This document shows positions 10,813 to 55,730 of a stretch of 64,000 bases of DNA, piece after piece. The translations under genes and the position numbers were made by a program. The notes below the pieces were generated by a model. The model was not told the DNA's origin. It saw only the letters and a list, made by a program, of their open reading frames with translations, and ran no database searches. The DNA lies in the NCBI GenBank assembly GCA_009777625.1, contig WRLL01000002.1, positions 563 to 64,562 on the forward strand. Reading direction: 5' to 3'. The first letter of the stretch is position 1. Each line of letters opens with the position of its first letter. The DNA is from Candidatus Saccharimonadota bacterium (lineage in GTDB: Bacteria > Patescibacteriota > Saccharimonadia > Saccharimonadales > Saccharimonadaceae).

Positions 10813-11856
10813 ATGATCTCAAACCTCCGTGTGCAAAATTTCCGCGTCCATGACGATTACGTAGTGGATTTTAATCAAGGCGTAACAGTGATAACTGGCC
10901 CGAACGGCAGCGGCAAGACTTCCCTGATCGAAGCAATTTATTTAGCACTGAGTGGCAAAAGCTGGCGGTCGAATTTCGCCGAGATTTTACAAACTGTTGG
11001 TGATAAACCAGCCGAATGGTGGCGGATTGACTTAACATTAGATGGCGGCGAAAAACGAACTGTGAAATTCTTAAACGATCAAGGAAATCTCAAGAAAAGC
11101 TTTGAAACTGGCGGTAAAATTTTCGCGCGCCTGCCTGCCAAAATGAAAAAACCAATCGTGTTGTTTGAGCCAAATGATTTACAACTCCTTTACGGCTCCC
11201 CTGCCCGGCGGCGACAATTCTTTGATCGTTTTATCACGGAATTAATTCCCGAGCATCAGACGAACTTAAACAAATTCGAACGGATTTTACGTCAGCGGAA
11301 TAACTTATTAAAAAAAGAAGCTTCGGCCGACGAATTATTCGTTTGGGACTTGCAGTTTTCTGATTTAAGTGAAAAGATTTCTCAGGCGCGTCGCGATGTC
11401 GTGAAGCAAATAAATGAGAATTTGACAGAAAAATATGCCGAAATTGCCGGTAAAAACGACGTGATTAATCTGAAATTCATGGCTGGCGGACCGTTGGATC
11501 GGCGTGAGATTATGAATGAATTAAGCAATCAAAAGTCTTACCAAGCCACACCGATCGGCGCCCAAAAAGACGACGTGAAATTCTTACTGAACAAGAAGCT
11601 GGCCAAAACCGCCGCCAGTCGCGGCGAAAATCGGACGATAATCTTTGCGATTTTGGCGCGACAGATTGAGATTTTGCGCGCTACTAACCAGGAAGTTTTC
11701 GTCATTCTAGACGATATCGACAGTGAGCTGGACGATGTACATAAGAATAATCTGTACAAGATTTCCGCTCTGAGTGAAAATAATTTGTTTGCGACCACAA
11801 TCAAGTTTAAAGGTAAAGCAGCTAATCACATTAAACTTTCGTCTTTGTCATCCTGA
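10813..11856 (+). CDS. recF: DNA replication/repair protein RecF
   Basis: N-terminal Walker A GPNGSGKTS, SMC-like signature region and C-terminal Walker B ILDDIDSELD. Confidence 0.9.
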   Translation: MISNLRVQNFRVHDDYVVDFNQGVTVITGPNGSGKTSLIEAIYLALSGKSWRSNFAEILQTVGDKPAEWWRIDLTLDGGEKRTVKFLNDQGNLKKSFETGGKIFARLPAKMKKPIVLFEPNDLQLLYGSPARRRQFFDRFITELIPEHQTNLNKFERILRQRNNLLKKEASADELFVWDLQFSDLSEKISQARRDVVKQINENLTEKYAEIAGKNDVINLKFMAGGPLDRREIMNELSNQKSYQATPIGAQKDDVKFLLNKKLAKTAASRGENRTIIFAILARQIEILRATNQEVFVILDDIDSELDDVHKNNLYKISALSENNLFATTIKFKGKAANHIKLSSLSS

Positions 11857-14070: not shown

Positions 14071-14299
14071 AACTTACCAATTATTATAACCCTTTCTCAT
14101 GATTTTTGACAAGGGGTGAAAAAGTAAAAAACTTATGTTAAAACGCAGCAACGAGAGAACAAAATGAATCTTGTTCATTTTGTTTCGAGTGCTAATGTTT
14201 TTTCTGTGATAAAATGTAAACGTGGGCAGATTTTATTTTGCCCGGCGAAAAAGGAATGGGGCGGTCCAATATTCAGCACCGCCAGTTTAGGAGTAAAAA

Positions 14300-15412
14300 A
14301 TAGCCGAACACAAAGTTCCCCAAGATGTCGAAGCCGAAGACAAACTGCTTGGCCCATTTAGCTTTCGGCAGTTTGTTTATTTGATGATTGCTTTTGCGGC
14401 GGGCGCTATGGCTTTCTTTTTAGGGCAGATGGCGATTATATTAGCGTTTATTCCCTCGCCAGTTATAATTGTGTTTGCAGTTTTGGCGTTGCCTCTTCGC
14501 AAGGATCAGCCTATGGAGACTTATCTGGCGGCGTTGATAAAGTTTTACTTTTCGCCGCATGTTCGACTTTGGGATCCGGATGGTCAAGACAGTCTGATCG
14601 AGATCAGCAACCCGATTGTCGACGACGAACCGCGGATCAAGGAATTCGGCGGCGAAGAAGCAGCCCGGCGCCTGTCATTTCTGGCTGATGTGTCGGACAC
14701 GCAGGGCTGGGCAACGCGCGGTGTTGGTGCGCCGATTAACACGACAATTCTGGCCGATGATTTGGCAGCTGAAGCTTCGACAACAGTAGATATATTAGAG
14801 GGGGCCGATTCATTATCCCAGTCGATTGACAATATGTTAAGTCAGTCTAATCAGCAGGTTCGTCAGGCGGCGGTGATACGTATGCAAAATGACGCGCCTT
14901 CCCCTTCGGTGCCACAGATGGCAGTTCCGTCGACTTCTTCTACGCCGGTTGCAACCAGTGAACCAGCTGTTGTGCCAACTCCACCAGCTGCACCTGTTAC
15001 TGCTTCGCCGTACGCTAGCGTTCAAGCCATGGCCGTCTCGCAGCCAACCAGCAATATCAGTGAAGTCGACGAGGCTAGCGCCGAGGCCCTGCTGAAACAG
15101 GCTGCAGCTGGTATGCCAGTGTCGAATCAGCCATCTATGCAACAAAGGGTTATTCAACCTCTAGGCGGTGTTTTTGGATCGAGTTCTCATTCGACTCCGA
15201 CTCCATCCAGTACATCACCTGTCCCACCCAGACAGCCAGCCGTACCGGTAATACCCACGGCGATCGAACCAGAAGAGCCGACCCCACTGCCGCTCTCGCC
15301 AGTCGAAGCGGAATCTGCTACAATAGAGTCAGCCAGCGCGCCAGAGGACGAAGGAATTATCGACCTTGGCGGCGATGATGGTAATAACGAAACGACGGTT
15401 TCACTTCATTGA
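14300..15412 (+). CDS. PrgI/VirB3-like T4SS membrane protein with long Pro/Ser/Thr/Ala-rich tail
   Basis: The frame opens right after TAA 14294-14296. A conserved-looking KVPQDVEAEDKLLGPFSFRQFVYL motif precedes two TM helices. AGGAG sits 6 nt upstream of ATA 14300. The first canonical start (TTG 14381 / ATG 14384) would delete the motif. Confidence 0.65.
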   Translation: MAEHKVPQDVEAEDKLLGPFSFRQFVYLMIAFAAGAMAFFLGQMAIILAFIPSPVIIVFAVLALPLRKDQPMETYLAALIKFYFSPHVRLWDPDGQDSLIEISNPIVDDEPRIKEFGGEEAARRLSFLADVSDTQGWATRGVGAPINTTILADDLAAEASTTVDILEGADSLSQSIDNMLSQSNQQVRQAAVIRMQNDAPSPSVPQMAVPSTSSTPVATSEPAVVPTPPAAPVTASPYASVQAMAVSQPTSNISEVDEASAEALLKQAAAGMPVSNQPSMQQRVIQPLGGVFGSSSHSTPTPSSTSPVPPRQPAVPVIPTAIEPEEPTPLPLSPVEAESATIESASAPEDEGIIDLGGDDGNNETTVSLH

Positions 15413-15427
15413 ACAAGGGTGGGAAGC

Positions 15428-16249
15428 ATGCAACCAAATCAACAACCGATCAACCCAGCACCAGCCGCCATGCCGGCCCCTGCTCCTGTTGCATCAGGTG
15501 GCAAGCCAACCCCGGCCAGTCCAAAGAACCCAAACTCGACGCAAAATACATTGGTTTTCGAAGAGCTACGCGACAAAATGGTCATCATGGGCGACGGTAC
15601 ATTTCGGGCTGTGGTAGCAGCGCAATCGATCAACTTTGATCTGATGAGCGGCCGCGAGCGCGACAGTATCGAAATGTCATACCAGGACTTCTTGAACTCA
15701 TTGACCTTTCCGATTCAGATTTATATTCGGTCGCAAAGGGTTGATATCGGGCCGTACCTTGACAAGCTAGAGCAATTGCGGGTTAGTCAGGACAACATGC
15801 TGCTTGGCGTATTGATGGACGATTATATTCAATTTATCGACGCCTTGAGCCAAGAAGCCAACATTATGGACAAGAGTTTCTTTATCGTGGTCCCCTATTC
15901 AATCGGCGAAGGCAGCCAAAGGGTTGGCGACAGTACCAGCGGTAAGTTTCCTCTGACGCAATTATTTGCGCCGACCAAAAATCATCAGCATATCAAAGTA
16001 CCGGCCGATCAATACGAGCGCGCCAAGGACGAAATCCAGCGCCGCGTTAACGCTGTAATAGATGGTTTAGCGCAGGTCGGCATTCGTGCCGTGCGGCTGG
16101 ATACGCGCGAGCTGGGTGAGCTGTACTACAATATTTACAATCCTGATACAGCTCTGCGACAGCCCATAGGTGACTTTAAGCAATTCACTGGCACGGTGGT
16201 GCAAAAAGGCCAAGGCCCAGCACCGAGCCAACCTGTAGGAGGCGTTTAA
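15428..16249 (+). CDS. VirB4 N-terminal-domain-like protein (detached), with Pro-rich N-terminal extension
   Basis: FEELRDKMVIMGDGTFRAVVAAQSINFDLMSGRERDSIEMSYQDFLNSLTFPIQIY resembles, from my recollection, the first domain of Gram-positive-type VirB4 (Tn916 Orf16/TrsE class). It ends at a TAA in frame with the next gene. Confidence 0.6.
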   Translation: MQPNQQPINPAPAAMPAPAPVASGGKPTPASPKNPNSTQNTLVFEELRDKMVIMGDGTFRAVVAAQSINFDLMSGRERDSIEMSYQDFLNSLTFPIQIYIRSQRVDIGPYLDKLEQLRVSQDNMLLGVLMDDYIQFIDALSQEANIMDKSFFIVVPYSIGEGSQRVGDSTSGKFPLTQLFAPTKNHQHIKVPADQYERAKDEIQRRVNAVIDGLAQVGIRAVRLDTRELGELYYNIYNPDTALRQPIGDFKQFTGTVVQKGQGPAPSQPVGGV

Positions 16250-18073
16250 ATGGCGAGAAAGAAGAAAACCGAAGTCGATATAGCGGCCCAACAACAAGCT
16301 CGCGAGGCTGCCGAGGTCGCCGCCGAATTCCAAAAAGGCATTACTACTCTGCGCGACCTGATTGCACCAGCCAGCCTAGAATTCAAATCGGGTTATTTCA
16401 TGATGGGGACGCGTTGGTGTCGAACTCTGTATGCTTATGGTTATCCGCGGACTATTTATACCGGCTGGTTGAGCTCTATTATCAACCTTGACGAAGTGAT
16501 TGATGTCAGTATGTTCATTTATCCGGTTGATTCACAGGTTGTCATGAATAACCTGAGGAAGAAAGTCACTCAGCTAGAAGCCTCAATGTCGGTCAACGCC
16601 GAGCACGGCAAAGTTCGCGACCCAGGTCTGGAGGCAGCCTACCAAGATGCCGAAGAACTACGTGATAAATTGCAGATTGGTGCCGAGAAATTTTTCCGCT
16701 TTGGTTTGTATTTTACGCTGTACGGTGAAAGCCAGGACGAACTGGATTATGTGACGCACAAAGTCGAAACTGTTCTGGGCCAACAAATGGTCCTAACCAA
16801 GGTCGCCTCGAGCCAACAGGAGCAAGGACTGAATTCGATTGTGCCACAGTTTTCTGATCAGCTGCAAATTCGACGCAACATGGACACGGGTGCGGTTTCG
16901 ACCTCCTTCCCTTTTACCAGCGCCGATCTGACGCAGGATAATGGGATTTTGTATGGTGTTAACATGCATAACAACGGCTTAGTGATTTTTGATCGCTTTT
17001 CTCTAGAGAATGCTAATATGGCAGTCTTTGCTAAATCCGGTGCTGGTAAATCTTTCACCGTCAAGCTAGAGGCGCTGCGGTCAATGATGATGGGCGCCGA
17101 CATTTTAATTATCGACCCGGAAAACGAGTATCAGAAACTTAGCGATGCAGTTGGTGGCGCATATATCCACCTCAGTTTGAACAGTGACACGCGAATTAAC
17201 CCGTTCGATTTGCCTCAGGTGGTTGACAGTGATGACGGCGAAAGTGCCGATGCATTACGCGCCAACCTGGTGACTCTACATGGATTATTGCGCCAAATGC
17301 TGGGCACCAGCCAAGTTGCGGCTGATGGCTCGATGGTCAGTATCCTTAGCCCAGGCGAAGAAGCTGATCTGGACCAGGCGCTGATTGATACCTATGCGCG
17401 CGTGGGTATTACTTCCGATCCGCTGACGCACAATTCGCCGCCGCCGGTGATGGCTGATCTGTATGATACTTTGCTGCATATGAGCGGTAATGGGCCAGAG
17501 TTGGCGCAGCGGTTGCGGCAATATACCACTGGAACTTTTGCCGGAATCTTTTCGCAGCAATCGAATGTTGAAATCAATAATCACATGGTTGTCTTTAATA
17601 TTCGTGATTTGGAGGACGAACTGCGGCCAGTAGCGATGTATATCGTCCTTTCACATATCTGGAACAAGGTCCGCACAGACAAAAGAAAGCGCATGCTAAT
17701 CGTCGACGAGGCCTGGCAACTGATGAAATATCCGGACAGCGCGAACTTTATGTTTTCGTTGGCCAAGCGGGCGCGAAAGTATTACCTGGGTCTGACAACT
17801 GTGACCCAGGACGTCGAGGACTTCATGAATTCGCAGATGGGCCGAGCGATTGTGGCGAACTCGTCAATGCAGATTTTGTTGAAACAGTCGCCTAGCGCTA
17901 TCGACGTTCTTGGCCAAGTGTTTAAGCTAACAGAGGAAGAACTAAAACGGTTGGCCAACTTCCCGGTCGGTCAAGGGCTATTCTTTGCCGGGCAAAACCA
18001 CGTGCTGATTCAAATTATCGCGTCTCAGACTGAGCAGGATTTGATTACAACGAATCCAGCACAGACCCAGTAA
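16250..18073 (+). CDS. VirB4/TrbE/TraC-family T4SS ATPase (C-terminal two-thirds)
   Basis: LRDLIAPASLEF...YPRTIYTGWL middle-domain motifs, Walker A AKSGAGKSFTVK and Walker B MLIVDEAWQLM. GGAGG lies 7 nt upstream of the ATG. Confidence 0.85.
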   Translation: MARKKKTEVDIAAQQQAREAAEVAAEFQKGITTLRDLIAPASLEFKSGYFMMGTRWCRTLYAYGYPRTIYTGWLSSIINLDEVIDVSMFIYPVDSQVVMNNLRKKVTQLEASMSVNAEHGKVRDPGLEAAYQDAEELRDKLQIGAEKFFRFGLYFTLYGESQDELDYVTHKVETVLGQQMVLTKVASSQQEQGLNSIVPQFSDQLQIRRNMDTGAVSTSFPFTSADLTQDNGILYGVNMHNNGLVIFDRFSLENANMAVFAKSGAGKSFTVKLEALRSMMMGADILIIDPENEYQKLSDAVGGAYIHLSLNSDTRINPFDLPQVVDSDDGESADALRANLVTLHGLLRQMLGTSQVAADGSMVSILSPGEEADLDQALIDTYARVGITSDPLTHNSPPPVMADLYDTLLHMSGNGPELAQRLRQYTTGTFAGIFSQQSNVEINNHMVVFNIRDLEDELRPVAMYIVLSHIWNKVRTDKRKRMLIVDEAWQLMKYPDSANFMFSLAKRARKYYLGLTTVTQDVEDFMNSQMGRAIVANSSMQILLKQSPSAIDVLGQVFKLTEEELKRLANFPVGQGLFFAGQNHVLIQIIASQTEQDLITTNPAQTQ

Positions 18074-19045: not shown

Positions 19046-19048
19046 CAG

Positions 19049-19075
19049 TTGTCATTCTAGGCTTGTCCCAGAATC
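19049..19075. repeat. half copy (single hairpin) of the palindromic element
   Basis: TTGTCATTCTAGGCTTGTCCCAGAATC, immediately after the kinase stop. Confidence 0.55.
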
Positions 19076-19090
19076 TAATCTATAACTTGA

Positions 19091-19281
19091 CCGAAACCCA
19101 AGCCTATAACATCACACAAACGGCTGCCAAAACGGTGGCGTAAGCCCAGCAAAATTCTTCTCAGGAAATTTGAAAACTCGGCTTCGCCTCAAACACTTCA
19201 AATTCCTTGATGAAGAATTTCACTAGCCTTACCCAGTTCTGTCAGAGTGTTTGCTTAGATGTTATAAGCTTGGGTTTCTGG
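19091..19281. repeat. ~190-bp imperfect palindrome (long hairpin) in a convergent intergenic spacer
   Basis: Outer arms CCGAAACCCAAGCCTATAACATC (19091-19113) and GATGTTATAAGCTTGGGTTTCTGG (19258-19281). Inner arms GGAAATTTGAA (19164-19174) and TTCAAATTCC (19197-19206). The middle of the stem is imperfect. Confidence 0.6.
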
Positions 19282-19295
19282 CTTGCCTAAGAGTT

Positions 19296-20345: not shown

Positions 20346-20428
20346 GATCCTTACCCCGCTCCTTTACAACTTTAAAATGGTTATGATACAATTGTAACAG
20401 AAAATAACTTTGCGGGAAGGTGGGCAAG

Positions 20429-20947
20429 ATGGATGGTGGTAACCAAAATTCGGTCAATGATGACGAGTTAAATCAGATGATAGCGAATTTGCAGGGTGGC
20501 CAGGCTATCCCGCCGGCCGATCCCAGTGCTCCGACTCCCCCACTCCCTGCTGCACCAGCTAATGCTGCGCTACCAGCTATTGACCCAGCGGCTGCCCCAC
20601 CGCCTATGCCGGTCGCGCCACAGCCGGCTCCAGCTACGGCTGTTCCACCGGTCACGGTCCCGGTTGTCGGAGCTCCGCCAACTGCCGCCGCGCCAGCTCT
20701 GAGCTCGGGTTTGGACGATATCAAGCATGATGCGTTGAATGAGCTGCGCCCACTGGTCAACAAACTAAATCTGCCGCCCGAGGACAAATTTGACACGTTG
20801 CTATTGATCATCCGTTCGACCGATGATGCGTCGCTGTTGCCGACCGCGCATATGGCCGCAAAAAGCATTCCTGATGAAACACGCCGGGCACAGGCGCTGT
20901 TGGATGTGATTAAGGAAATTGATTTCTTTGGGCAGCAAGGTAAATAG
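20429..20947 (+). CDS. hypothetical protein with Pro/Ala-rich centre and helical C-terminal domain
   Basis: ORF with GGAAGGTGGG upstream of ATG 20429. No recognisable motifs. Confidence 0.5.
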   Translation: MDGGNQNSVNDDELNQMIANLQGGQAIPPADPSAPTPPLPAAPANAALPAIDPAAAPPPMPVAPQPAPATAVPPVTVPVVGAPPTAAAPALSSGLDDIKHDALNELRPLVNKLNLPPEDKFDTLLLIIRSTDDASLLPTAHMAAKSIPDETRRAQALLDVIKEIDFFGQQGK

Positions 20948-24849: not shown

Positions 24850-25638
24850 TTAACAGCCACCCGAACCGCCAGAACCATCAGTGGGGCCGGGTTTGACCGA
24901 TTGATCGGCGGCCCATTCGTATGTTAAGACGGTACCAGTTCCGTTGTACATGCCCTGCTTGATTTCCAAATAATCAAAGGCTACGGGTGGAAAACCGGAT
25001 ACTCGACCAGTATAGCCGGATGGTGTGCCAACTTGCGGGTTAGACCAACCTTGTTTTGGATCGTTATTGCTATAAGTGTCAACACCTGTCCATGGCGCAG
25101 GTCCAGCCTCGATTGCAGCAGCATAGATCGATTTACCGTTGTCTGGATTAGTCACCTTGACAATGCGTGGTGCTTCTCTCATCCATGCCAGATATGCAGG
25201 GCCGCCATCTGTCGTTGCCGACTTGCCATTCCAATACCAAGCCACATAACCCCAGCGCATCGTGATGTAATAGTCGCGGTATTCCTGCCCCAATGCTGCG
25301 AAGCCCGAGAATGTTACTTTCGGGCCACTAGGATTAGATATCAGGGCGCCATTCTCGAGCACGGCTTCTTCTAACCCTGCTTTGCCAGAAGTCGCTGGTA
25401 TTGCGAATGATATATCACTGCCTGATGTCGATGTGCTGCCGGGTATGCTACTCACGAGTGATGACAAACAGGCATTATCCGAGTAGAAAAAGATGTTGTT
25501 GGTCGCGTAAAAATCGTTTAGTGTCATGCTAGGCACAGGGGCAGCGTGTGTCACGGAAACGCCCAGGAACGACAAAATCAAGGCCATGGCTGGCAGCCAC
25601 AGGCCTACCAGACGTTTTGGTGCGTGTTGGCGACTCAT
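24850..25638 (-). CDS. secreted protein, possible RlpA/DPBB-like (lytic transglycosylase-type) fold
   Basis: Signal peptide ending VTHAAP. VKVTNPDNGKSIYAAAIEAGP resembles the RlpA V.V.N..NGKS...V.DRGP strand region (weak). The start overlaps the upstream stop (ATGA). Confidence 0.5.
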   Translation of the reverse strand: MSRQHAPKRLVGLWLPAMALILSFLGVSVTHAAPVPSMTLNDFYATNNIFFYSDNACLSSLVSSIPGSTSTSGSDISFAIPATSGKAGLEEAVLENGALISNPSGPKVTFSGFAALGQEYRDYYITMRWGYVAWYWNGKSATTDGGPAYLAWMREAPRIVKVTNPDNGKSIYAAAIEAGPAPWTGVDTYSNNDPKQGWSNPQVGTPSGYTGRVSGFPPVAFDYLEIKQGMYNGTGTVLTYEWAADQSVKPGPTDGSGGSGGC

Positions 25639-26117
25639 AATTCTACCTCTGGTGGCGGCAAATTAGTACACTCAAATGCATCATAGATCAGCTGGCTAAC
25701 GTCGGGGCAAGTTATTAAAATAGTGCCATCACCCAGGACAGACCGGCTATCATTTAGCCAGTTGTCGAGCATCTGGTATGTCTGCTCGAGGCTGGGAATG
25801 TCAATAATGAAAAACGTAACATAGGTGCTCAGGTCATCGTTGTAGCTCTGTAAATAGGAACCATCACGAATGGCAGCGTCTTTTGCGTAGCGTCCTTCGG
25901 CCAACCCATTTTGCTGTAGCATCAGAGTTAAGGTCTGTTCGATAACCACGCGTCGGCTGTTTGGCAAGTTCCCGACATACTGATCGAAGTTGGTTATGAC
26001 TGACCTGGGGGTACCGTCAGAATTAGACAGCAGCGGCGTGAATGCCAGACCAATTATTACTATCACCAATGTGGTTACGACTATGATTACGCGTTTGCGC
26101 CAAGCCTTATATTCCAT
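25635..26117 (-). CDS. bitopic exported protein (N-terminal TM + ~125-aa ectodomain)
   Basis: RVIIVVTTLVIVIIGLAFTPLL anchor. GGAG SD upstream. Size and topology are VirB8-like. No motif evidence. Confidence 0.5.
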   Translation of the reverse strand: MEYKAWRKRVIIVVTTLVIVIIGLAFTPLLSNSDGTPRSVITNFDQYVGNLPNSRRVVIEQTLTLMLQQNGLAEGRYAKDAAIRDGSYLQSYNDDLSTYVTFFIIDIPSLEQTYQMLDNWLNDSRSVLGDGTILITCPDVSQLIYDAFECTNLPPPEVEL

Positions 26118-26164: not shown

Positions 26165-29100
26165 TTACCATCCAGTAGTCGACCAGTGCCACGGCTCTGC
26201 AAGACGTGGTGGTGTGTCCAGATTAATCAAGCCATATCTTGCAGCGTTGGCCGCCAGCCACTTAAACCCATCACTGTTTTTGTTGCTGCCAAAGTTGAAG
26301 TCTATAGCGCCGCCACCTTCGTGTTGGGAAGTGCCCGGAGTAGCGACCGGCGGGCTGCATCCGGGGCAGCCTCTGGATTTGTACAAGTTCGTCTGCGTTT
26401 CGTTGGAACGCCAGCCAGTGCCGTTCAGCCTAATTCCGGCTGTCGTCCAGGCGTCGTCAATCATCTGGGCAACATTGCCGGAAATAAGCGAGTTAACAGT
26501 AATAGTGGTGTTATTGACTGTACAGATCTTGAAGGTAACACCCCCACTAAGGCCTAGAGACGGTATGCTAAATTCCCGGTTGTTATAGGATTCTATAAAT
26601 TCTGTTGTCCCTGTAGCGCAAGGTATACTAGAATAATCCATGCCTGGGGTCAGGGTCCAGCCCCTACCGTGCTGGGTAACATTATCCGGGGTGGCAATGG
26701 TTAGAGACGAACCTGCGCTGCCGTCATCGTTTGGCTCCTCGTCCATCGAATCAAGGATGCGTTTGTAGATTAGATAGTTGTAAAACACGACGTTCTCGGA
26801 GACACCATTGATAGCGGCGACTTGATCGGTGCTGGCAACCAGTTGACCACGGCTATCCAGTGTTTCATGCGCCATGGCGATAGTTGGGCCGGCACTACCT
26901 GAGGCAAAGTCGGTGTCCTGCATACACCTGACACCATCGCCGACGTCTGCTTGGCCCTCCAGGGACTCGGTGCCTATCGGGACTCCGCGGTCAACACACT
27001 TTTCGATAAATTCAGAGAAAACAGTGCCGGCGACCGGATCACCCTCGGCGTCAATGAGATTATTGTCTTCCATGTATGCTACTGTTTGCCCTAAATCAGT
27101 CGTCGTTGTCAGACCATAGGTCGGTATACCCAAGTAGTCACAGCCAACACCGGCGGCTTCGTAGTCTAAATCGGCGCACTTAAAGTAGTCAGAAGAGATT
27201 TCTTCGGCGGAAGCTCTGGGGCCGGCTAACGCGCCACGAAAAGCTGTGCCGATCAGCCCGTACGTCTTGGCAAAGAACGCTGGGATACTGTTAGTTGCTC
27301 CATCCATATGGACTGACATATTGCCAGCAAACGATCCAAGTGGTGTGTAAGGATTCCTTACGTCGTACCAATTGGCACCGATGCGCTCTTCTGCGGCATA
27401 GGCCAGCGCGAGCCCGCGAGTCTGATTGGCTTGGTTAACGGCTTGCTGCGGACTGAGTGGCGCACAGCCGCCTGCCTGACAGGCTTCCTTAAACATGCTG
27501 CTTGCCCCGACCGCCCAAGCGTCGCCAGCCTGCTCGCCTAGTGTATCATCATCGATCACTACACCAGCTGCTATGTCTGTCAGCACACCGGGCAGTATGG
27601 CCACGATGGCCTCGAAACCAAGATTGCCAACTATATTTGTCCAGAAACGTTTGTTTTTGAGTAGTCCTTTGTTGAACATCTGTCTGAATTGTTGCTTGAT
27701 AGCTGCCTTTACGGCCTGCTGAAAGGCTATTTGGCCGCTTTTTAGGACGGCATTACCAGTGCCGGCTGTAAAGATGCCTACTACGACATTTATAGTTATA
27801 CCGATTGCAGCATCGGCAATTTGGAAGGCTATACTGCGGACCTTCTTGCAATCCGATGCGAGATTGTGCTCACCTATTTTACTGGCACCTTGGTTGATGC
27901 CAGCCAACATAGCGCCCCATATACTACCCCCCAGTGACCCCATAAAGTTCATCATCGACTCGCTGGGTGGCATGCGGTCGCCAAACAATACATATTTCAT
28001 GCCGACGCCATCAGTTGCGGCGCCCTGCACGATGTCGCCCTTTTTGATGTCGGCCAATATGGTACCATCCGTGTCTTTGATCACCTCGTCAGAGGCTGCT
28101 CTGAGTACCGTGGTCAACGTATTACCCAGGAATTCGCCCTGGGCTGGCGTGGCCTTACCAAGTCGCATAGCATCAGCTGCGCTCATAAACGCCATGGCGT
28201 AGCGGATCAACTGGATATTACGCACCATTTTTATACCGACACCGACTGCACGAACTGCATTATACAGACCGCAAACATAATTTAGGGTGCCGCCAGTGAC
28301 GTTCACGAATCCAGCTATTTTCTGGAGGTTGCTTTCGGACATGCCGCTGACTGCCGCTGTGACGGCGCGTTTGCCAGACGATGCGGCTTCTTCGGCACCG
28401 CTGGCAATGGCAGAGGTAGACCGGTTCATTTCTTCGACTTGCGCAGTCAGGCTGGCTCTATCATCCCAAGATTTCGTAATCGGCTTGCCATCATCACCTA
28501 ACACGGGCCTGTCGTTTTGGTCGACAATCTGCTGTGTACCGTTTTGGTTATCCGGATCCACTGGTGCAACCCTAAAGCTACTCTGCCCGGGTGCAACGCC
28601 ATCATTGACAGCTGACCTCAGCTTACTCTTCATTTCCTCTGCGTCGCCAGTTTCAGGCAAAGGTGGCCTTTTGCTGGCCTTAGCCTTGGCTACCACGCGG
28701 CTGAATGTGCGGTCGGTAAAACCGGCAAATTTGGGGTCGTAGCCGGCTTTGCGGAATGCCTTGCTGACTGCTGGGTCTGTTGCCATTGCTTTCTGAATAG
28801 TGGTTGCATCGTATACCATTACACCATTGAGCGGTTTGACGTTGTCTGGTAGCTGTATAGAGTGCACTGACTGACGGCCGCTGCCTGGGCTAATCGGGTG
28901 GCCCCCACTATCGAAGAGCTTGAACCCAGCTTTGTCTAGTCGTTTAACCATGCGCGCAGGCATTTTCTTGAATTTACAGGTCGCGCTGACTGCTGTGCAA
29001 ACTTGGCCGGACAGACTCTGACGCCAAACATGCCCTGAATTATTTTTCATAGGCCACCACTGGACGTTCATTATACCACCGCTCATCGCACCTGTTAGCC

Positions 29101-29491
29101 AGGGCAGCAGCGTTGCTGGTCCACTAAACATCAGTAGTGCGCCAGCAATGCCAAAACCTCCGGCACTGCCAAAGAGTATCTTTTTGGCATGTTTTTTCAT
29201 AAATGTCTTGGCCTTGTCGCCTCTGCCACCACCTTCTTTGCTGCCTTTTTTATCACCACTATAGTCCCAGGGATTGGATGGTGCATCCTGGCGCTCGGCG
29301 TCGGAAACGTTGGATGAATCGGTCGGTGAATTGCCGGCGGCTTGTTCGGCGGCACCCAGTTGGGACCCGATCGAATGGTCAGCGGGGTTGTCATAACCAG
29401 CGGTGGGATTTGAATAGTCAATCTCTGGTTGCTGGGTACGCCCAAGATCTTCTAGAAGCTGGGCGGTATACTCTTTCTTCTTAGCGGCCAT
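26165..29491 (-). CDS. 1108-aa membrane-associated protein with C-terminal M15 (VanY/D,D-carboxypeptidase-type) zinc peptidoglycan peptidase domain
   Basis: The C-terminus carries GWRSNETQTNLY, SQHEGGGAIDF (SxHxxGxAxD) and EPWHWS (ExWH), the VanY/M15B metal-ligand pattern. There is an N-terminal hydrophobic segment (ILFGSAGGFGIAGALLMFSG) and further hydrophobic stretches mid-protein. GGAGG SD upstream. Confidence 0.8.
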   Translation of the reverse strand: MAAKKKEYTAQLLEDLGRTQQPEIDYSNPTAGYDNPADHSIGSQLGAAEQAAGNSPTDSSNVSDAERQDAPSNPWDYSGDKKGSKEGGGRGDKAKTFMKKHAKKILFGSAGGFGIAGALLMFSGPATLLPWLTGAMSGGIMNVQWWPMKNNSGHVWRQSLSGQVCTAVSATCKFKKMPARMVKRLDKAGFKLFDSGGHPISPGSGRQSVHSIQLPDNVKPLNGVMVYDATTIQKAMATDPAVSKAFRKAGYDPKFAGFTDRTFSRVVAKAKASKRPPLPETGDAEEMKSKLRSAVNDGVAPGQSSFRVAPVDPDNQNGTQQIVDQNDRPVLGDDGKPITKSWDDRASLTAQVEEMNRSTSAIASGAEEAASSGKRAVTAAVSGMSESNLQKIAGFVNVTGGTLNYVCGLYNAVRAVGVGIKMVRNIQLIRYAMAFMSAADAMRLGKATPAQGEFLGNTLTTVLRAASDEVIKDTDGTILADIKKGDIVQGAATDGVGMKYVLFGDRMPPSESMMNFMGSLGGSIWGAMLAGINQGASKIGEHNLASDCKKVRSIAFQIADAAIGITINVVVGIFTAGTGNAVLKSGQIAFQQAVKAAIKQQFRQMFNKGLLKNKRFWTNIVGNLGFEAIVAILPGVLTDIAAGVVIDDDTLGEQAGDAWAVGASSMFKEACQAGGCAPLSPQQAVNQANQTRGLALAYAAEERIGANWYDVRNPYTPLGSFAGNMSVHMDGATNSIPAFFAKTYGLIGTAFRGALAGPRASAEEISSDYFKCADLDYEAAGVGCDYLGIPTYGLTTTTDLGQTVAYMEDNNLIDAEGDPVAGTVFSEFIEKCVDRGVPIGTESLEGQADVGDGVRCMQDTDFASGSAGPTIAMAHETLDSRGQLVASTDQVAAINGVSENVVFYNYLIYKRILDSMDEEPNDDGSAGSSLTIATPDNVTQHGRGWTLTPGMDYSSIPCATGTTEFIESYNNREFSIPSLGLSGGVTFKICTVNNTTITVNSLISGNVAQMIDDAWTTAGIRLNGTGWRSNETQTNLYKSRGCPGCSPPVATPGTSQHEGGGAIDFNFGSNKNSDGFKWLAANAARYGLINLDTPPRLAEPWHWSTTGW

Positions 29492-29518: not shown

Positions 29519-32209
29519 TCACCCCCCACCTCCCCCAGGAGCCGGTGGCGCCGGCGGTGCAGGTGGTGGCGCTCCTCCACCCCAACCCCTCAGCGCAGCT
29601 CGTTGACCTTCGTCAAGAGAGAGATTGCGGTTGTCTAGAATGCGTTGTGCGGTGTCTGCCTTCCACTGTGCACCTGTGACGCCGTCTCCCATGTCTGCAT
29701 CGTCCCTTATTGACGTCCCCGCCTGTACTAGCGCTGCGGCATTCTGGGTAGCTATCTCGCTATCGCCCAGGGTGGCCCATACGCCACCGCGGCCTGCTGC
29801 ATCTGTAGCGCCAATGTCTTGTTCTGCGAGTGTCGCGTTGGGGTCTCTAGCCCATGCAGCCACTGAAGCATAGCCACCTTTCACTGCACCATAGTGTTTG
29901 GTCTGGATATCCGACCTTAGATCTGTCGCCACAGCATTCCATCCTCCGGTTCCTTCGACATCTCTCAATGTGTCATGCAATGCCATCACGCCACGTTTAC
30001 CACGGGCCACCATCTGGTTCTGGACTGCCCGGGCTCTGTCGACATTGCCGGTCGCTACAGCCTCTCTCATCTGACGTTCCAAACTCACTATTGGGTCAAT
30101 ATTTGTTCCTCGCTCATGCCCCTTCCCGCTCATGTCCATTTCCAGTTGGCTGGCAACGAGGGCTTCCTGAGCCTTAACAGCTTCAGTCGATCGCTCAAGT
30201 GCCAGTTCATAGCCCTTAGCTTCGCGAGCCTGTCCCGTCTTACCTAGCCTTGCATTTGCTGCCCGGGTGGCTCGTGCCCGCCAACTGTTAGACTGCTCAC
30301 CGCTTTTGTTCAGGCCAGCCCGACGGAAAGCCTGGGTCCTCTGGGCGTTGGCCTGATGTCTTTTCCACATTTGCCCGCCCAATGAACGTTCATGTTCTTC
30401 TTTGGCTTTCGACTTGGTTCGTCCAAATTGGCTGCTCATGCGTCCAGCTGCGAAACCACCGACCATAGCGCCGACCTTGCCAAGGCTATTGAGTGAACCC
30501 TTCAGGATCCATGGTACGGCGAATAGAGGTAGAATTTGGGCGGCTGAGCCAGCCAGCATCAAGGCAAAACCGGTCACATCTATGGTGCCACTACCCTTTG
30601 ACATTAGATCGTTGCCCTGCGCTATAAGGATCTGGCCACCCAGTATTGATGCGCCGTAGATTAGGCCAATGATCGGATAGACCAGCAGGAGCGACGAGAA
30701 GACCTTCCACCACTTCTTGAACAGTGATTGGGTATTAGGCAGTATGGCCATGGCGAAGGCTATTGGTGCGATGACTACCAGCAACACAACAGCCAGCTGG
30801 CGAACAATCAGGATGAGGAGTGTCATTAGCAGTACGAGCAAGACGGCCAGTATGAGCGGGATGAATATACTCAGGCTGGAGAACAGTGCTATACCACCAG
30901 CGATCAGAGCGCCGGATATAATTAGGCCGGTGATGCTGGCAAAGCCACCGCCCGTGGTTGTATTAGGGCCGTCAGGCACCTCGATTGCCGGTACATTGTA
31001 GGCTAAATCGGTGAAGAAGGCTTTCATGCTTGAGCCAAGCAAGTTGCTAATGTCTACTGCTACGGCACAGATCCACCATGACAGGTTTAACAGGATGGCA
31101 AAGATAATTAGTCTAGGCAGGATTTGCTTGACGCTGTAATTACTAAGAGCGCCAAAGCCATTGCCGGTGGCTGTAGAATAGATAATAACAAGGAACAGTA
31201 TGACCAGGAGAATGTTAGCGATCGGTAGAATAGCTGCATAGGCCCCATAGGCTGGGCTGCTGGTGTCAAACATTGTGGGCTGAACCTGCAGGAAGCCTTC
31301 GAGCAGGCTGAACGTGTGGTCGGCTACTTCACCGAGGAAGTCTAGGATTGGGCAGAGGAGCCAGCCTATGCCGGTTATGGCGCAGTCAGAGAGAGAGTTA
31401 ACATCTGCTGGTCTACAGAAAGGAAAGCCATCAGAATCGGCTTCCCACGTGCCGTCGTCAGCCTCGCACGCCGCCCGGCGTTCGGATTCAGGTATACAGC
31501 GGTTCTCAGTATTTATCCACTCACCGCCAGCATTAACACAATTTACCTGATTGGATGTTTCTAAAGTCGTGGTGTCAACTTGCTGTAGGGCCGCACCGAT
31601 GCTGGCGATGCTTGGCGGGTTATCCGTTACGATGTTTTTACCATTTATGCAGCTTTCCATTAACGCTGGACCTGATTTGCCTCTGGTTTCGTCTGCACAT
31701 GTTACGTATGCATTAATGACTCTTGATCGACAGTTTGCGTAGTCCTGTTGCATGCTGGGGCTGCCGCTGCCACCACCATATCTGGAACAATATAAACTGA
31801 TAAGAGGTTGTAGCGCAACGGCTAATTCCGGATCGTATTGTCGTTCGGCCGCCTGTAGTCCCAGAGCGCAGCTTGCCGGGGCATTATCCACAATGCTGCC
31901 AACGAAGCACGAATCGAACGTACTTCCATTGCTGGCGCTTTGATAACCCTTAATGCAATTATCTAGCCATACGTCTTCCTTGTTCTGGAAGGTAAAGCTT
32001 TTTTTTACTTGCTCGCCCGAGAGGAAATCCTTTACTTCCCATTCTACATTACGCGGGAAATTGCTTGAATTGTTCCGAAAGTTGTTACACCAATCGCTAG
32101 CCGCATCAGCATAAGCCGACTGGACGTTAGAAATCATTGGCGCAAATATAGAGACCACCAATCCCAAAATCGCTGGAAATATGAGGGCCCTCTTCCACCA
32201 CTTTTTCAT
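29519..32209 (-). CDS. VirB6/TrbL-like polytopic T4SS membrane protein with Cys-rich N-terminal ectodomain and long charged C-terminal tail
   Basis: Signal/anchor MKKWWKRALIFPAILGLVVSIFAP, then a ~290-aa ectodomain with ~20 Cys, then ~7-8 TM helices, then a ~300-aa Arg/Ala/Gly-rich tail ending PPPAPPAPPAPGGGGG. The start was set at ATG 32209. Confidence 0.65.
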   Translation of the reverse strand: MKKWWKRALIFPAILGLVVSIFAPMISNVQSAYADAASDWCNNFRNNSSNFPRNVEWEVKDFLSGEQVKKSFTFQNKEDVWLDNCIKGYQSASNGSTFDSCFVGSIVDNAPASCALGLQAAERQYDPELAVALQPLISLYCSRYGGGSGSPSMQQDYANCRSRVINAYVTCADETRGKSGPALMESCINGKNIVTDNPPSIASIGAALQQVDTTTLETSNQVNCVNAGGEWINTENRCIPESERRAACEADDGTWEADSDGFPFCRPADVNSLSDCAITGIGWLLCPILDFLGEVADHTFSLLEGFLQVQPTMFDTSSPAYGAYAAILPIANILLVILFLVIIYSTATGNGFGALSNYSVKQILPRLIIFAILLNLSWWICAVAVDISNLLGSSMKAFFTDLAYNVPAIEVPDGPNTTTGGGFASITGLIISGALIAGGIALFSSLSIFIPLILAVLLVLLMTLLILIVRQLAVVLLVVIAPIAFAMAILPNTQSLFKKWWKVFSSLLLVYPIIGLIYGASILGGQILIAQGNDLMSKGSGTIDVTGFALMLAGSAAQILPLFAVPWILKGSLNSLGKVGAMVGGFAAGRMSSQFGRTKSKAKEEHERSLGGQMWKRHQANAQRTQAFRRAGLNKSGEQSNSWRARATRAANARLGKTGQAREAKGYELALERSTEAVKAQEALVASQLEMDMSGKGHERGTNIDPIVSLERQMREAVATGNVDRARAVQNQMVARGKRGVMALHDTLRDVEGTGGWNAVATDLRSDIQTKHYGAVKGGYASVAAWARDPNATLAEQDIGATDAAGRGGVWATLGDSEIATQNAAALVQAGTSIRDDADMGDGVTGAQWKADTAQRILDNRNLSLDEGQRAALRGWGGGAPPPAPPAPPAPGGGGG

Positions 32210-32216
32210 ATATATA

Positions 32217-32245
32217 ATCATAAACGAAATTGCGTTTGAATGCAA
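32217..32245 (-). promoter_or_regulatory. leaderless promoter of the VirB6-like operon (TTGCAT-N17-TATGAT-N7-ATG)
   Basis: On the minus strand, -35 TTGCAT is at 32245-32240 and -10 TATGAT at 32222-32217, with the ATG at 32209. Near-identical to the module at 55737-55765. Confidence 0.6.
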
Positions 32246-45988: not shown

Positions 45989-46052
45989 GGAAGAAAAGAA
46001 AAATGTCGGCCCGCGAGGTTGACATTTTTGTTTCTTGCAAAGTCATTGGCCA

Positions 46053-52819: not shown

Positions 52820-53230
52820 CTAAACCGAAGTACCGCCGCCGGCGCCTGTACCAACAACACTGACAACCCAGCTCACGATCGCATAGCCCAGGATTGCGAC
52901 AACCAAACCGATTATAGCGTACAGGATGGTATTCTTTGCATCCTTGACCTTTTCTTGGTTACCGCCAGAGATAACATAGCGAATACCACCCCAAATCAGC
53001 ATGAAAATCGCCAGAATTCCAACGACGAACAGCATCAGATTAATGGCGCGCGGGATCAATGCTTGTGGCCCATCAAACAGCTCGGTCGGTTGGCCTTCGC
53101 CACGATAAGAACCGCTAAAAACATCCAATATCGACAAAGCAGAAGCCGGCAAGGTCGACATCAGCGTCACACCAACAAACAGCGTGGCAACTGAGATGAC
53201 CTTGCTTAACTTCTTAAATAATTGTCGCAT
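52820..53230 (-). CDS. VirB2/TrbC-like T4SS pilin paralog 7
   Basis: Signal peptide, then TM1, the WGGIRYVISGGNQEKVKDAKNTILYAIIGL loop and TM2. No Cys in the ectodomain. Confidence 0.75.
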   Translation of the reverse strand: MRQLFKKLSKVISVATLFVGVTLMSTLPASALSILDVFSGSYRGEGQPTELFDGPQALIPRAINLMLFVVGILAIFMLIWGGIRYVISGGNQEKVKDAKNTILYAIIGLVVAILGYAIVSWVVSVVGTGAGGGTSV

Positions 53231-53244
53231 AGAGCTACCTTTGA

Positions 53245-53661
53245 CTAACCGCCGAGTACTCCAAATACCCAGTTAACCAGTGCGTAGGCGATGATTGCTA
53301 TGATTAGGCCAACCACGGAGTACAGAATAGTATTCTTGGCGTTCTTGACCTCGTCTTCTTTACCGCGTGACAAGACATAGCGGATACCACCCCAGATGAT
53401 CATGATGACAGACAGGATACCAACGATAAACAGCATAATGTTGATAACGGTGGTCACAATGCCATTATTACCAAACAGCGAGCCGGTTTGCATGCCTTCG
53501 CCGACTGCACAGTCTTCGTTAATTGCGCCCGCCAAACCTTGCGTCTCGTCGCATGGATCACCCGGCGCCGCATGGACCGCTGGTGCGAACAATCCGAACC
53601 CCAGCACCAAAGCTGGCACTAAAAGCAATGTTGTGCTGATTTTCTTTATCATGCTTTTCAT
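53245..53661 (-). CDS. VirB2/TrbC-like T4SS pilin paralog 6
   Basis: Signal peptide ending VHAAP, a 2-Cys variable segment and the WGGIRYVLSRGKEDEVKNAKNTILYSVVGL core. Confidence 0.78.
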   Translation of the reverse strand: MKSMIKKISTTLLLVPALVLGFGLFAPAVHAAPGDPCDETQGLAGAINEDCAVGEGMQTGSLFGNNGIVTTVINIMLFIVGILSVIMIIWGGIRYVLSRGKEDEVKNAKNTILYSVVGLIIAIIAYALVNWVFGVLGG

Positions 53662-53736
53662 TTAGCCTCCCTCTATCAAATTACTAATTCTTTAACATTT
53701 TACTAAACTTGGAGTTTCATTGCAAATCGATTATGT

Positions 53737-54171
53737 TTAAGATCCCAGCAGACTAAACACCCATTGGACGATTGCGAAGGCCAGAATTGCCACGATCAGA
53801 CCAACGATCGCATAAATAATAGTGTTTTTTGCATTCTTAACTTTTTCAGGATCGCCGCGTGACAGGACGTAACTGATGCCGCCCCAGATGATCATGATGA
53901 CAGACAGGATACCGATGATGAAGAGCATAATATTGATGACCTGCTGGATAGTGCTGTTAAGGTCGCGGGCGCCGCTGGCTCGCACGCATTTTCCGCCGAC
54001 CCATTCTGATCCGGTCTCGGATTGGCAGGCGCTACAGGCTGCAATATTTGCAGCACCAGACAGTTTGTTACAATCAGCTGGGGCTGCGTACGCCGGTGCG
54101 GGCGCAAGGAATGTTGCGCCAACGCCCAATACTGCGACCATGGCAACAATTATATTTGTTAGTTTCCTCAT
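53737..54171 (-). CDS. VirB2/TrbC-like T4SS pilin paralog 5
   Basis: Signal peptide ending AYAAP, a 4-Cys variable segment and the WGGISYVLSRGDPEKVKNAKNTIIYAIVGL core. Confidence 0.78.
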   Translation of the reverse strand: MRKLTNIIVAMVAVLGVGATFLAPAPAYAAPADCNKLSGAANIAACSACQSETGSEWVGGKCVRASGARDLNSTIQQVINIMLFIIGILSVIMIIWGGISYVLSRGDPEKVKNAKNTIIYAIVGLIVAILAFAIVQWVFSLLGS

Positions 54172-54187
54172 AGGTGACTCCTTTCTT

Positions 54188-54586
54188 TTATAACCTACTT
54201 AAAACGAAATTGACAATTGCAAAGGCTGACACAGCGATAACCAGACCGACGATCGAATAGATCAGCATGTTACGGGCTTTTGTGACGGCATCTGGGCTGC
54301 CGCGGCCGGTTACGAAGCGAATACCGCTGATGGTGATCATGATGACGGCGATGATACCAGCTACAAAGATTAGGACATTGATGATATTTCTAAAAGTATT
54401 ATTTAAGGCTGTGTCGGCATTGGGGTCTTTCAGATCGGCGCAAACGGAGGAGTTCGGATTGGCCTTGCATAATTCCTGTATATTCTTTTCCGTAGAGGTA
54501 TCGGGTGCGGCAGATGCTGGCATTGCAAAGACCAAACTACCGGACAGGCCTGCGATCATGACTAAACTTAAGAAGATCTTCTTCAT
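54188..54586 (-). CDS. VirB2/TrbC-like T4SS pilin paralog 4
   Basis: Signal peptide ending ASAAP, a 2-Cys segment and the SGIRFVTGRGSPDAVTKARNMLIYSIVGL core. Confidence 0.75.
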   Translation of the reverse strand: MKKIFLSLVMIAGLSGSLVFAMPASAAPDTSTEKNIQELCKANPNSSVCADLKDPNADTALNNTFRNIINVLIFVAGIIAVIMITISGIRFVTGRGSPDAVTKARNMLIYSIVGLVIAVSAFAIVNFVLSRL

Positions 54587-54589
54587 CGG

Positions 54590-54862
54590 CTAAACCCTTC
54601 CAAACACAAAGTTAGTAATCGCAAAGGCTGCTACAACTACAACTAGCCCAATTACAGCGTAGAGAATGGTCTGCATGGCTTTCTGAGCCTTAGCCGGATC
54701 ACCGTTAGCTGTCAGATAACGGTAGCCAGCCATGATTATGAAAATTACCGCCACCATACCTAGAATAAAGTATGCGAGATTCAAAATGTTAGTCATCAGC
54801 CGGTCGCCGGAAACTTTCGGAACGTTGACATCTATTGCTGCGAGTAATCCAAGTACTTTCAT
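54590..54862 (-). CDS. VirB2/TrbC-like T4SS pilin paralog 3 (short, minimal N-terminus)
   Basis: 90 aa with the AGYRYLTANGDPAKAQKAMQTILYAVIGL core. The start overlaps the upstream stop (ATGA). Confidence 0.7.
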   Translation of the reverse strand: MKVLGLLAAIDVNVPKVSGDRLMTNILNLAYFILGMVAVIFIIMAGYRYLTANGDPAKAQKAMQTILYAVIGLVVVVAAFAITNFVFGRV

Positions 54863-55326
54863 GCGCCCAACCTCCCGACAATAAAGCTAACAATAATGGC
54901 CGATATCATAGCAATGACCGCGCCGATGACGGCCTTCAAAATTGTGTCTTGGGCCTTTTTGGTTTCTTCGGGTTCGCCTTGGGATGTAACGTATCTAAAG
55001 CCGCCATAGATAACATAGCCTACTGCCAAAATGCCGACGATACGCAAGGCGATGTCAACAATGTTCAGAACGACAGTAAAGATAATGACGTTTACCTGGA
55101 GCTCGCAATTGCCATCTTTGCCTCCTTTGCCTGGGACATTGCCCAGGCCTCGGTACCAAGTTGGGAAACCAAAAAAGTTGGCGTCAGAGTCAGCGGCGCC
55201 GGGGATCACTTCGCCTGTGCAGGGAGCATTTCTAGCTACAGCGCTGACCGCCGTTGGCATAGCAATCATCAGACCAGTTGCGCTAAATGCAACTATGGAT
55301 AAACTTATTATAAATTTCTTTATCAT
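54859..55326 (-). CDS. VirB2/TrbC-like T4SS pilin paralog 2
   Basis: AGGAGG SD before ATG 55326. Signal peptide MIKKFIISLSIVAFSATGLMIAMPTAVSA, a 2-Cys segment and the GGFRYVTSQGEPEETKKAQDTILKAVIG core. The ORF-track extension to 55521 overlaps paralog 1. Confidence 0.75.
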   Translation of the reverse strand: MIKKFIISLSIVAFSATGLMIAMPTAVSAVARNAPCTGEVIPGAADSDANFFGFPTWYRGLGNVPGKGGKDGNCELQVNVIIFTVVLNIVDIALRIVGILAVGYVIYGGFRYVTSQGEPEETKKAQDTILKAVIGAVIAMISAIIVSFIVGRLGA

Positions 55327-55730
55327 GAAAGGATGCCTCCTGGCACCAGGAAATTCAATGCTGCCCACATAATGAAGTATAGGACCAACCCGATAACAGA
55401 ATTCCTGATAGTGTCCAGACCTTTTTTCGATTGTTCGGGGTTTCCGCCACTGGTGGTGTAGAGGATCGCTCCATAAATTATGCCACCCAGCACAGCGATT
55501 GATACACCAATAGCCATCCAATTGACGATAGTGATAAGTAACGGTGTAATCTGTTCTGGGTTGCCTGAATCACAGCCCCAGTCAAAGAAAGTGTCCACAC
55601 CGCAGTTACGGTTTCCGGTCGCAGCCGAGACGCCTTTTGCGGTCAACAACGCTGCGGCAGTCACAGACAACGGCCCGCCAAATCCAAACACCCTTGATGG
55701 CAAAGAAAGCTTCAAGTGTCGTTTTAGCAT
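55323..55730 (-). CDS. VirB2/TrbC-like T4SS pilin paralog 1 (most divergent)
   Basis: Signal-like N-terminus, a 2-Cys segment (NCGVDTFFDWGC) and the two-TM core ILYTTSGGNPEQSKKGLDTIRNSVIGL. Confidence 0.65.
   Translation of the reverse strand: MLKRHLKLSLPSRVFGFGGPLSVTAAALLTAKGVSAATGNRNCGVDTFFDWGCDSGNPEQITPLLITIVNWMAIGVSIAVLGGIIYGAILYTTSGGNPEQSKKGLDTIRNSVIGLVLYFIMWAALNFLVPGGILS

Follow-up and report, generated by a model that had tools for sequence, protein, structure and literature searches.

The DNA considered here is a 64,000-nt window, the whole stretch that was analysed, which makes up nearly all of the 64.7-kb contig WRLL01000002.1 of a Candidatus Saccharimonadota bacterium. Its positions 14300-18073 are filled exactly by three adjacent, co-directional genes of the + strand, prgI, a trsD-like gene and virB4, which belong to protein families of type IV secretion systems (T4SS) and are referred to below as genes 1, 2 and 3 (Table 1). 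An earlier sequence-only reading had taken them for the PrgI/VirB3 and VirB4 core of a Gram-positive-type T4SS with a VirB4 ATPase made in two pieces, and both parts of this proposal are borne out by the profile matches described below. The same reading had noted Pro-rich low-complexity extensions on genes 1 and 2, and these, too, were found again when the composition of the two products was analysed.

Table 1. Coordinates of the T4SS genes and of the replication-origin genes in the window.
Feature	Position	Strand	Remarks
prgI/virB3-like gene	14300..15412	+	370 aa; ATA start; Pfam PrgI match
trsD-like gene	15428..16249	+	273 aa; remote VirB4 N-terminus homologue
virB4 ATPase gene	16250..18073	+	607 aa; NF045971 above cut-off
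Extended VirB6-like polytopic membrane protein	29519..32245	-	908 aa; part of the same T4SS
Protein with C-terminal VanY (M15) peptidase domain, T4SS cell-wall hydrolase	26165..29491	-	1108 aa; Pfam VanY E 3.5e-9
Single-transmembrane (TM) protein, probable T4SS accessory protein	25635..26117	-	160 aa; N-terminal TM; homologue downstream of virB4 in loci L017 and L025
Seven VirB2-like pilin genes (array)	52820..55730	-	Pfam T4SS_pilin PF18895
Single pilin genes of the array	52820-53230, 53245-53661, 53737-54171, 54188-54586, 54590-54862, about 54859-55290, 55323-55730	-	
dnaA	7990-9432		directly upstream region of the trio
dnaN	9709-10794		upstream region of the trio
recF	10813-11856		upstream region of the trio

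On NCBIfam NF045971, the CD1110 family typified by the VirB4 of the C. difficile element CTn2, the product of gene 3 scores 370.3 bits against a curated cut-off of 325 bits, so that the VirB4 call of the earlier reading holds when it is checked against profiles. Pfam P-loop_TraG is matched with 95.9 bits, AAA_10 and DUF87 are matched too, and the best curated families for this VirB4 are MPF-FATA types. Residues 225-600 match the structure of the VirB4 C-terminal domain 4ag5 (E 6e-45), the P-loop region matches residues 593-736 of R388 TrwK, and both Walker motifs, A (AKSGAGKS) and B (MLIVDE), are intact. Gene 3 does not, however, encode a full-length single-chain VirB4. Its match to NF045971 spans profile positions 181-732 of 752, the first ~180 being absent; NF045975 is covered from 292 to 893 and Pfam TraC_F_IV at 277-350.

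The product of gene 2 begins with a disordered stretch of 40 residues, 27% of them Pro, which is followed by a fold of the VirB4 N-terminal type. It matches, weakly in each case, positions 4-74 of 752 of CD1110 VirB4 (NF045971), positions 99-233 of 894 of VirB4_plasma (NF045975) and positions 123-177 of TraC_F_IV, and on the NCBIfam TrsD/TraD model (NF041427) it scores 21.1 bits (E 2e-4). Its homologues give the same picture: 52 of 53 match TrsD (best E 7.5e-8) and 51 of 53 match VirB4_plasma (best E values near 5e-8), and the precomputed annotation of gene 2 itself is PF26593 TraC-like. A PDB sequence search with gene 2 returned no match even at E 10. When its AlphaFold2 (AF2) model was compared with the PDB by Foldseek, the top 14 matches were all TrwK/VirB4 chains of R388 (best E 5e-3, probability 1.0), the structural reference being the cryo-electron microscopy structures of TrwM/VirB3-TrwK/VirB4 (7o41, 8rtb). 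Gene 2 thus encodes a small protein resembling the VirB4 N-terminus, with a conserved position between prgI and virB4, as is typical of TrsD.

Genes 2 and 3 take consecutive, non-overlapping and collinear parts of three VirB4 models (TraC_F_IV, NF045971 and NF045975), for which reason "two-piece VirB4" is a fair description of the pair, the published name of the upstream piece being TrsD. A profile search with gene 2 among 1.8 billion representative proteins retrieved 2,883 clusters, nearly all of them stand-alone proteins of 200-450 aa. A fused TrsD-VirB4 form was encountered once among the top 150 representatives: in P0463 (898 aa) residues 7-238 align to gene 2 and residues 323-888 to gene 3 (49% identity). 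This entry of the representative library may be a fusion that exists in nature or the product of two gene calls merged into one.

Right after the TAA that ends trsD comes the ATG of virB4, with a GGAGG 6 nt upstream of it; of 75 related loci, 51 have stop and start codons overlapping as TAATG. From this arrangement trsD and virB4 are judged to be translationally coupled, and the split to be old and conserved, not a frameshift or an assembly error. The three genes of the window share one reading frame, with the TAA alone standing between genes 2 and 3, so that stop-codon read-through or an ancestral three-way fusion was considered as well. This was rejected because the frame relation of genes 1 and 2 varies over the 75 loci (51/12/12, the 51 being mostly near-identical Nanosynbacter genomes), and because in most loci the TAATG overlap puts gene 3 in another frame than gene 2. 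Each of genes 2 and 3 has its own Shine-Dalgarno sequence and start codon, and the shared frame is a coincidence.

Gene 1 has an unusual start codon. Translated from the ATA at 14300 it scores 51.1 bits on Pfam PrgI (PF12666; E 2e-13; gathering score 27 bits) and matches the domain, which is that of PrgI of pCF10, over its whole length, from profile position 1 to 90 of 91. Translation from the TTG at 14381, which is the first canonical start, yields only 15.3 bits and would delete the conserved N-terminus of the family (KVPQDVEAEDKLLGPFSFRQ). An AGGAG motif lies 6 nt before the ATA (window 14289-14302). Of 71 related loci, 67 have ATG as the homologous prgI start, and the non-ATG starts are ATA in the window and in the near-identical contigs L001 and L002, ATC in L003 and GTG in L072. 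Public gene calls in the ATA lineage begin downstream and yield proteins of 342 and 329 aa without the PF12666 label, which all prgI homologues with an ATG start carry. In lineages with an ATA or ATC start, gene callers systematically truncate prgI and the Pfam label is lost. No consensus + strand promoter was found in the 229-nt region upstream of gene 1. Many relatives, among them L018-L058 and further loci of the Nanosynbacter type, have in the last 20 nt before the prgI ATG a box resembling TATAAT (e.g. gatataatataagcagtATG) that stands right in front of the start codon, and no Shine-Dalgarno sequence; this suggests that the prgI mRNA is leaderless in these relatives, in contrast to the Shine-Dalgarno-led non-AUG start in the window.

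Hydropathy places a two-helix hairpin at about residues 23-68 of gene 1, and the AF2 model has helices at 22-44 and 47-63 (pLDDT 86-96). A hairpin of this kind is characteristic of the PrgI family, and it is encoded two genes upstream of virB4 in all relatives with enough upstream flank. A Foldseek search with the gene 1 model returned only noise (E > 3), and the pTM of the model is 0.26 because of the disordered tail. The juxtamembrane residues after the hairpin are conserved as far as about residue 165, and then come some 200 variable residues rich in Pro, Ser, Ala and Gln, the Pro/Ser/Ala-rich composition being most evident at about residues 200-360. The very end is a conserved acidic stretch and a C-terminal [VI][ED][IV]xLH motif, here TVSLH (window 15389-15409), which the conservation profile and the alignment place in almost all Saccharibacterial PrgI-like proteins. 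It looks like a short docking motif, and no mention of it was found in the excerpts of the Saccharibacteria T4SS literature compared. The basic residues R67 and K68 after the second helix suggest that the tail is cytoplasmic. The same is suggested by VirB3-VirB4 fusions in other systems, which require a cytoplasmic VirB3 C-terminus (PMC12102498).

The order prgI-trsD-virB4 is kept in 75 of 75 related Saccharibacteria loci with enough flank, and VirB4 there is 76-87% identical across genera; over many genera figures of 76-97% are obtained as well. Taken together, the 120 best VirB4 matches listed and all 80 retained genome loci are 76-100% identical to gene 3, and the named organisms among the listed matches are Saccharibacteria, save for a few bins labelled Nomurabacteria or Sphaerimonospora. 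Two ENA metagenome contigs encode an identical VirB4 and agree with the window in gene order, and the closest named relatives are metagenome-assembled genomes and isolates of Candidatus Saccharibacteria, Nanoperiomorbaceae and Nanosynbacter.

Further genes of the same system are found in the window at a distance from the trio. In the VirB6-like protein an N-terminal TM or signal segment is followed by an outer domain rich in Cys; about six TM segments lie at residues 331-581, and the C-terminal part is long and hydrophilic. The protein matches TIGR03782 TraJ only weakly (E 0.013), and in at least 10 related loci its homologue is encoded directly upstream of prgI and co-directionally. The homologue of the VanY protein directly follows virB4 in at least 12 related loci. 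No family match was obtained for the 160-aa protein in the Pfam scan; it is probably an accessory protein of the T4SS. Six of the seven pilin genes match PF18895 (E 1e-9 to 6e-15), and pilin homologues adjoin the trio in L004, L005, L007, L008, L062, L066 and L072. The remaining paralogue (54590-54862) is a 90-aa protein that is pilin-like by eye and has no N-terminal signal or leader such as the other six possess. TrsD, PrgI/VirB3, VirB6-like and VirB2-like pilin genes, the set known from Patescibacteria T4SSs, are thus all present in the window.

What is usually one contiguous cluster of pilin genes, VirB6-like gene, prgI, trsD, virB4 and VanY hydrolase gene lies here in three blocks, at 14.3-18.1 kb, ~25.6-32.2 kb and 52.8-55.7 kb, with the lipid kinase gene, pgi, groEL/ES and other genes between them. 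The same arrangement is seen in L003, L006 and L010. The cluster has been broken up in this lineage by a rearrangement specific to it, as gene order in the relatives indicates. As a consequence of such dispersal, searches of ±20 genes around virB4 (PMC12102498) could miss parts of the system, the pilin array being ~35 kb away from virB4.

The trio stands downstream of the replication-origin genes rnpA, yidC, dnaA, dnaN and recF and a divergent MacB-type ABC exporter, and virB4 is followed by a DAGK-type lipid kinase gene, pgi and groEL/ES. The sequence-only reading had described the module as flanked by nothing but housekeeping genes. This is true of the immediate neighbours, but the module is not isolated, as other T4SS genes lie 6-38 kb away and adjoin the trio in relatives. 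The reading had also reported that no relaxase, coupling protein, integrase or plasmid gene occurs in the window, and in this it is supported: Pfam scans, or precomputed Pfam annotation of an identical contig, revealed no VirD4, relaxase, integrase or plasmid domain in plausible open reading frames (ORFs) of at least 120 aa. A search for element boundaries at about 13-20.5 kb gave no repeats, direct or inverted, that were convincing, no tRNA gene adjoins the module (the nearest is 28 kb away), an Rfam scan of the whole window returned tRNAs only, and the GC content of the module is like that of its surroundings. In a promoter and terminator scan no terminator was found between virB4 and the lipid kinase gene. 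The hallmarks of a conjugative element (a relaxase, a type IV coupling protein (T4CP), integrase or replication genes, and boundaries) are thus absent from the window. Its features are those described for Patescibacteria, namely a chromosomal site near dnaA/dnaN and no relaxase near virB4 (PMC12102498).

A region with VirB4, VirB6 and PrgI together with an array of small secreted proteins has been described in TM7x and across Saccharibacteria (McLean 2020, PMC7427843). In Southlakia epibionticum, SEML1_0006-0019 were annotated as a T4SS like Gram-positive conjugative systems, with pilins and with no coupling or relaxase proteins (Wang 2023, PMC10633639). Transposon sequencing (Tn-seq) in the same study found SEML1_0007 (1113 aa), 0008 (612 aa, TraC KO), 0009 (293 aa, hypothetical) and 0010 (PrgI) essential at later time points. 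The requirement of SEML1_0007-0011 for epibiotic growth is known by Tn-seq in S. epibionticum only. Among 3,035 Patescibacteria genomes, VirB4 was reported in 2,417, mostly in a single Patescibacteria clade inside MPF-FATA. Of the components found along with VirB4 the commonest was TrsD, which is described there as a distant homologue of the N-terminal part of VirB4; PrgI/VirB3, VirB6 and VirB2 arrays were widespread, with only 109 relaxases in all the genomes (Quiñonero-Coronel 2025, PMC12102498). According to the same source the T4SS genes are frequently near dnaA/dnaN, and at clade level the absence of relaxase and oriT from complete genomes and the congruence of the VirB4 tree with the species tree have already been reported. 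A T4SS review of 2025 restates the same points on the Patescibacteria systems. A perspective of 2024 calls the role of the Saccharibacteria T4SS "completely unknown" (PMC11665869), and our literature search found no resolved function for it.

The nearest known counterparts are the systems of S. epibionticum ML1 (SEML1_0006-0019) and Nanosynbacter lyticus TM7x, which contain the same trio of PrgI, TrsD-like protein and VirB4 (300/293/612 aa in ML1, 370/273/607 aa in the window). They share with the window the VanY-type peptidase, the VirB6-like protein, the VirB2-like pilin array, the site next to dnaA/dnaN and the lack of a relaxase or coupling protein nearby. They differ in that ML1 and most relatives have one contiguous cluster instead of three pieces, and prgI of ML1 begins with ATG instead of ATA and is accompanied by six pilin genes instead of seven. 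By size and position the 1108-aa VanY protein fits SEML1_0007, and on the same two grounds only the 908-aa protein corresponds to SEML1_0011 (hypothetical; a "type IV secretion system protein" by Foldseek) and not to SEML1_0013, which is annotated as TrbL/VirB6.

Among conjugative systems, TrsC-TrsD-TrsE of pGO1/pSK41 and TraC-TraD-TraE of pIP501 have a gene order like that of the window: a VirB3-like membrane protein, a small VirB4-N-like protein and the VirB4 ATPase (PMC12102498). Unlike the window, these MPF-FATA systems of Staphylococcus and Enterococcus are plasmid-borne, possess a relaxase and a T4CP, transfer DNA and have no VirB2-like pilins, and their short canonical TrsC/TraC-type proteins lack the tail of ~280 aa seen in the PrgI-like protein here. 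PrgJ of pCF10 and the CD1110-type VirB4 are single chains of ~750-800 aa, whereas in the window the first ~180 profile positions are in a separate gene. The R388 system, with ~10% sequence identity, is of the diderm kind; it has a core complex in the outer membrane and a single-chain VirB4.

From the identity and the architecture of its genes, the trio is very probably the inner-membrane motor module of the conserved chromosomal T4SS possessed by all Saccharibacteria, which belongs to the Patescibacteria clade derived from monoderm MPF-FATA. By homology with better known systems, PrgI/VirB3 would insert into the membrane as a hairpin of two helices, its N- and C-termini both being cytoplasmic, and anchor the ATPase there. 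TrsD would, as a separate chain, supply the first part of the VirB4 N-terminal domain, and translational coupling would fix the TrsD:VirB4 ratio. The two chains would then form a VirB4-type ATPase, presumably oligomeric as in other T4SSs. In other T4SSs, such as those of A. tumefaciens and R388, it is VirB4 and not VirD4 that drives pilin extraction and pilus biogenesis. The composite ATPase, the VirB6-like channel protein and the VanY-type hydrolase may together produce a wall-spanning channel and a VirB2-type pilus, for which the pilin array would provide the subunits. Such a non-conjugative machine may carry out an essential exchange with the host bacterium.

Several points weigh against this interpretation or restrict it. 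The domain identities, the intact ATPase motifs, the conservation of the trio, the trsD-virB4 junction and the further T4SS genes were observed in this analysis, while the anchoring by PrgI, the complementation by TrsD, the assembly of a pilus and the cytoplasmic place of the PrgI tail, together with the physical interaction of the components and their oligomeric state, are presumed from homology with other systems. The TrsD assignment is one of remote homology and not of membership at the NCBI threshold, the 21 bits obtained being far short of the curated 200; for gene 2 the AF2 model has a moderate pLDDT of 65 and a Foldseek TM-score of only 0.33. The genes of the window were matched to their SEML1 counterparts by order, size and annotation and not by alignment. 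Outside the window, which spans nearly all of its 64.7-kb contig, the rest of the genome could still hold a VirD4-like gene.

A rival reading takes the trio for a decaying remnant, or a part, of an ordinary integrative and conjugative element or plasmid, with the genes for relaxase, coupling protein and integrase situated beyond the window. The best curated family of its VirB4 is of the conjugative transposon type, and in most Patescibacteria genomes VirD4-like genes are far from virB4 (PMC12102498). We nevertheless regard such an origin as highly improbable. The window shows no relaxase, T4CP or integrase gene, no flanking direct repeat and no adjacent tRNA gene, nor any departure in GC content, and the trio consists of three intact frames with a fixed position near dnaA and a VirB4 well conserved over many genera. 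The scarcity of relaxases in Patescibacteria genomes points the same way, as does the fact that S. epibionticum needs the trio but can do without its VirD4-like gene. It is likewise improbable that the module is the motor of a ComB- or Ced-type DNA-uptake (competence) machine and not of a secretion or pilus system. PMC12102498 favours the hypothesis that DNA or other macromolecules are imported, the ComB system of H. pylori offers a precedent, and gene 3 has weak NCBIfam matches to the archaeal import ATPases CedB (E 3e-14) and CedD (E 8e-6). These matches, however, are limited to the shared P-loop region and fall far below the cut-offs. Competence of S. epibionticum, moreover, needs comEC, whose deletion ends transformation and leaves viability unaffected, whereas the T4SS is essential.

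A different question is whether gene 2 completes the ATPase at all. It may instead be an accessory paralogue of the VirB4 N-terminal domain, for example an assembly factor or a substrate adaptor, with the 607-aa VirB4 being self-sufficient. TrsD has no assigned function even in pGO1, its homology to VirB4 is remote, fused forms are as rare as noted above, and gene 3 keeps ~225 residues before its P-loop domain. Nonetheless, this seems unlikely to us, given that the two genes occupy successive segments of both NF045971 and NF045975, that trsD and virB4 are invariably adjacent and coupled, and that P0463 keeps the same TrsD-then-VirB4 order in one chain. We retain the view that TrsD and VirB4 would act as one composite ATPase within a chromosomal T4SS.

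Several other features of the window deserve mention. The VirB6-like protein ends in a Pro-rich low-complexity sequence (29519-29580; APPPAPPAPPAPGGGGG), and a 175-aa ORF between pgi and groEL (20420-20947) is largely Pro/Ala-rich; Pro-rich low-complexity tails look like a common trait of the envelope proteins encoded by this genome. The intergenic stretch at 19046-19295, where the lipid kinase gene and pgi converge, contains a hairpin of ~190 nt with a minimum free energy of -83.4 kcal/mol (z = -6.4 relative to shuffled sequences). The hairpin matches nothing in Rfam, occurs as a single copy in the window and is conserved in two near-identical contigs only; it could be a bidirectional terminator, an insert resembling a miniature inverted-repeat transposable element, or a non-coding RNA. 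Two tandem paralogues on the + strand (33115-34335 and 34431-35741; 406 and 436 aa), each with an N-terminal TM segment, share motifs such as WWFAYYNNDK and KIYFWVDRGSR, and neither matches a family. Four tRNA-Ser genes with the anticodons GGA, CGA, TGA and GCT lie within less than 5 kb (45897-50540).

The proposal of the sequence-only reading that the module belongs to a chromosomal, non-conjugative, T4SS-derived machine suited to an epibiotic lifestyle agrees with a conclusion already published (PMC7427843, PMC10633639, PMC12102498). Indeed, every element of the main finding has been published before, including the pairing of TrsD with VirB4, the site close to dnaA, the lack of a relaxase, the essentiality of the counterpart genes by Tn-seq and the speculation on effector delivery or uptake. 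What this analysis adds is small and leaves the classification unchanged: the ATA or ATC start of prgI and the mis-annotation connected with it, the C-terminal motif of PrgI, the splitting of the cluster, and the contrast between Shine-Dalgarno-led and putatively leaderless prgI. Of these, the long disordered PrgI tail with its [VI][ED][IV]xLH end invites the idea of a tethered docking arm that recruits TrsD/VirB4 or substrates to the channel. We consider this a long shot, but if it were true, the arm would take over part of the job of the VirB8 tails or of the missing coupling protein, and it would represent a new way of wiring the inner-membrane complex of a T4SS. The Saccharibacterial T4SS is in any case biologically important, and the window, which brings in no new kind of system, confirms its published architecture in one more lineage.

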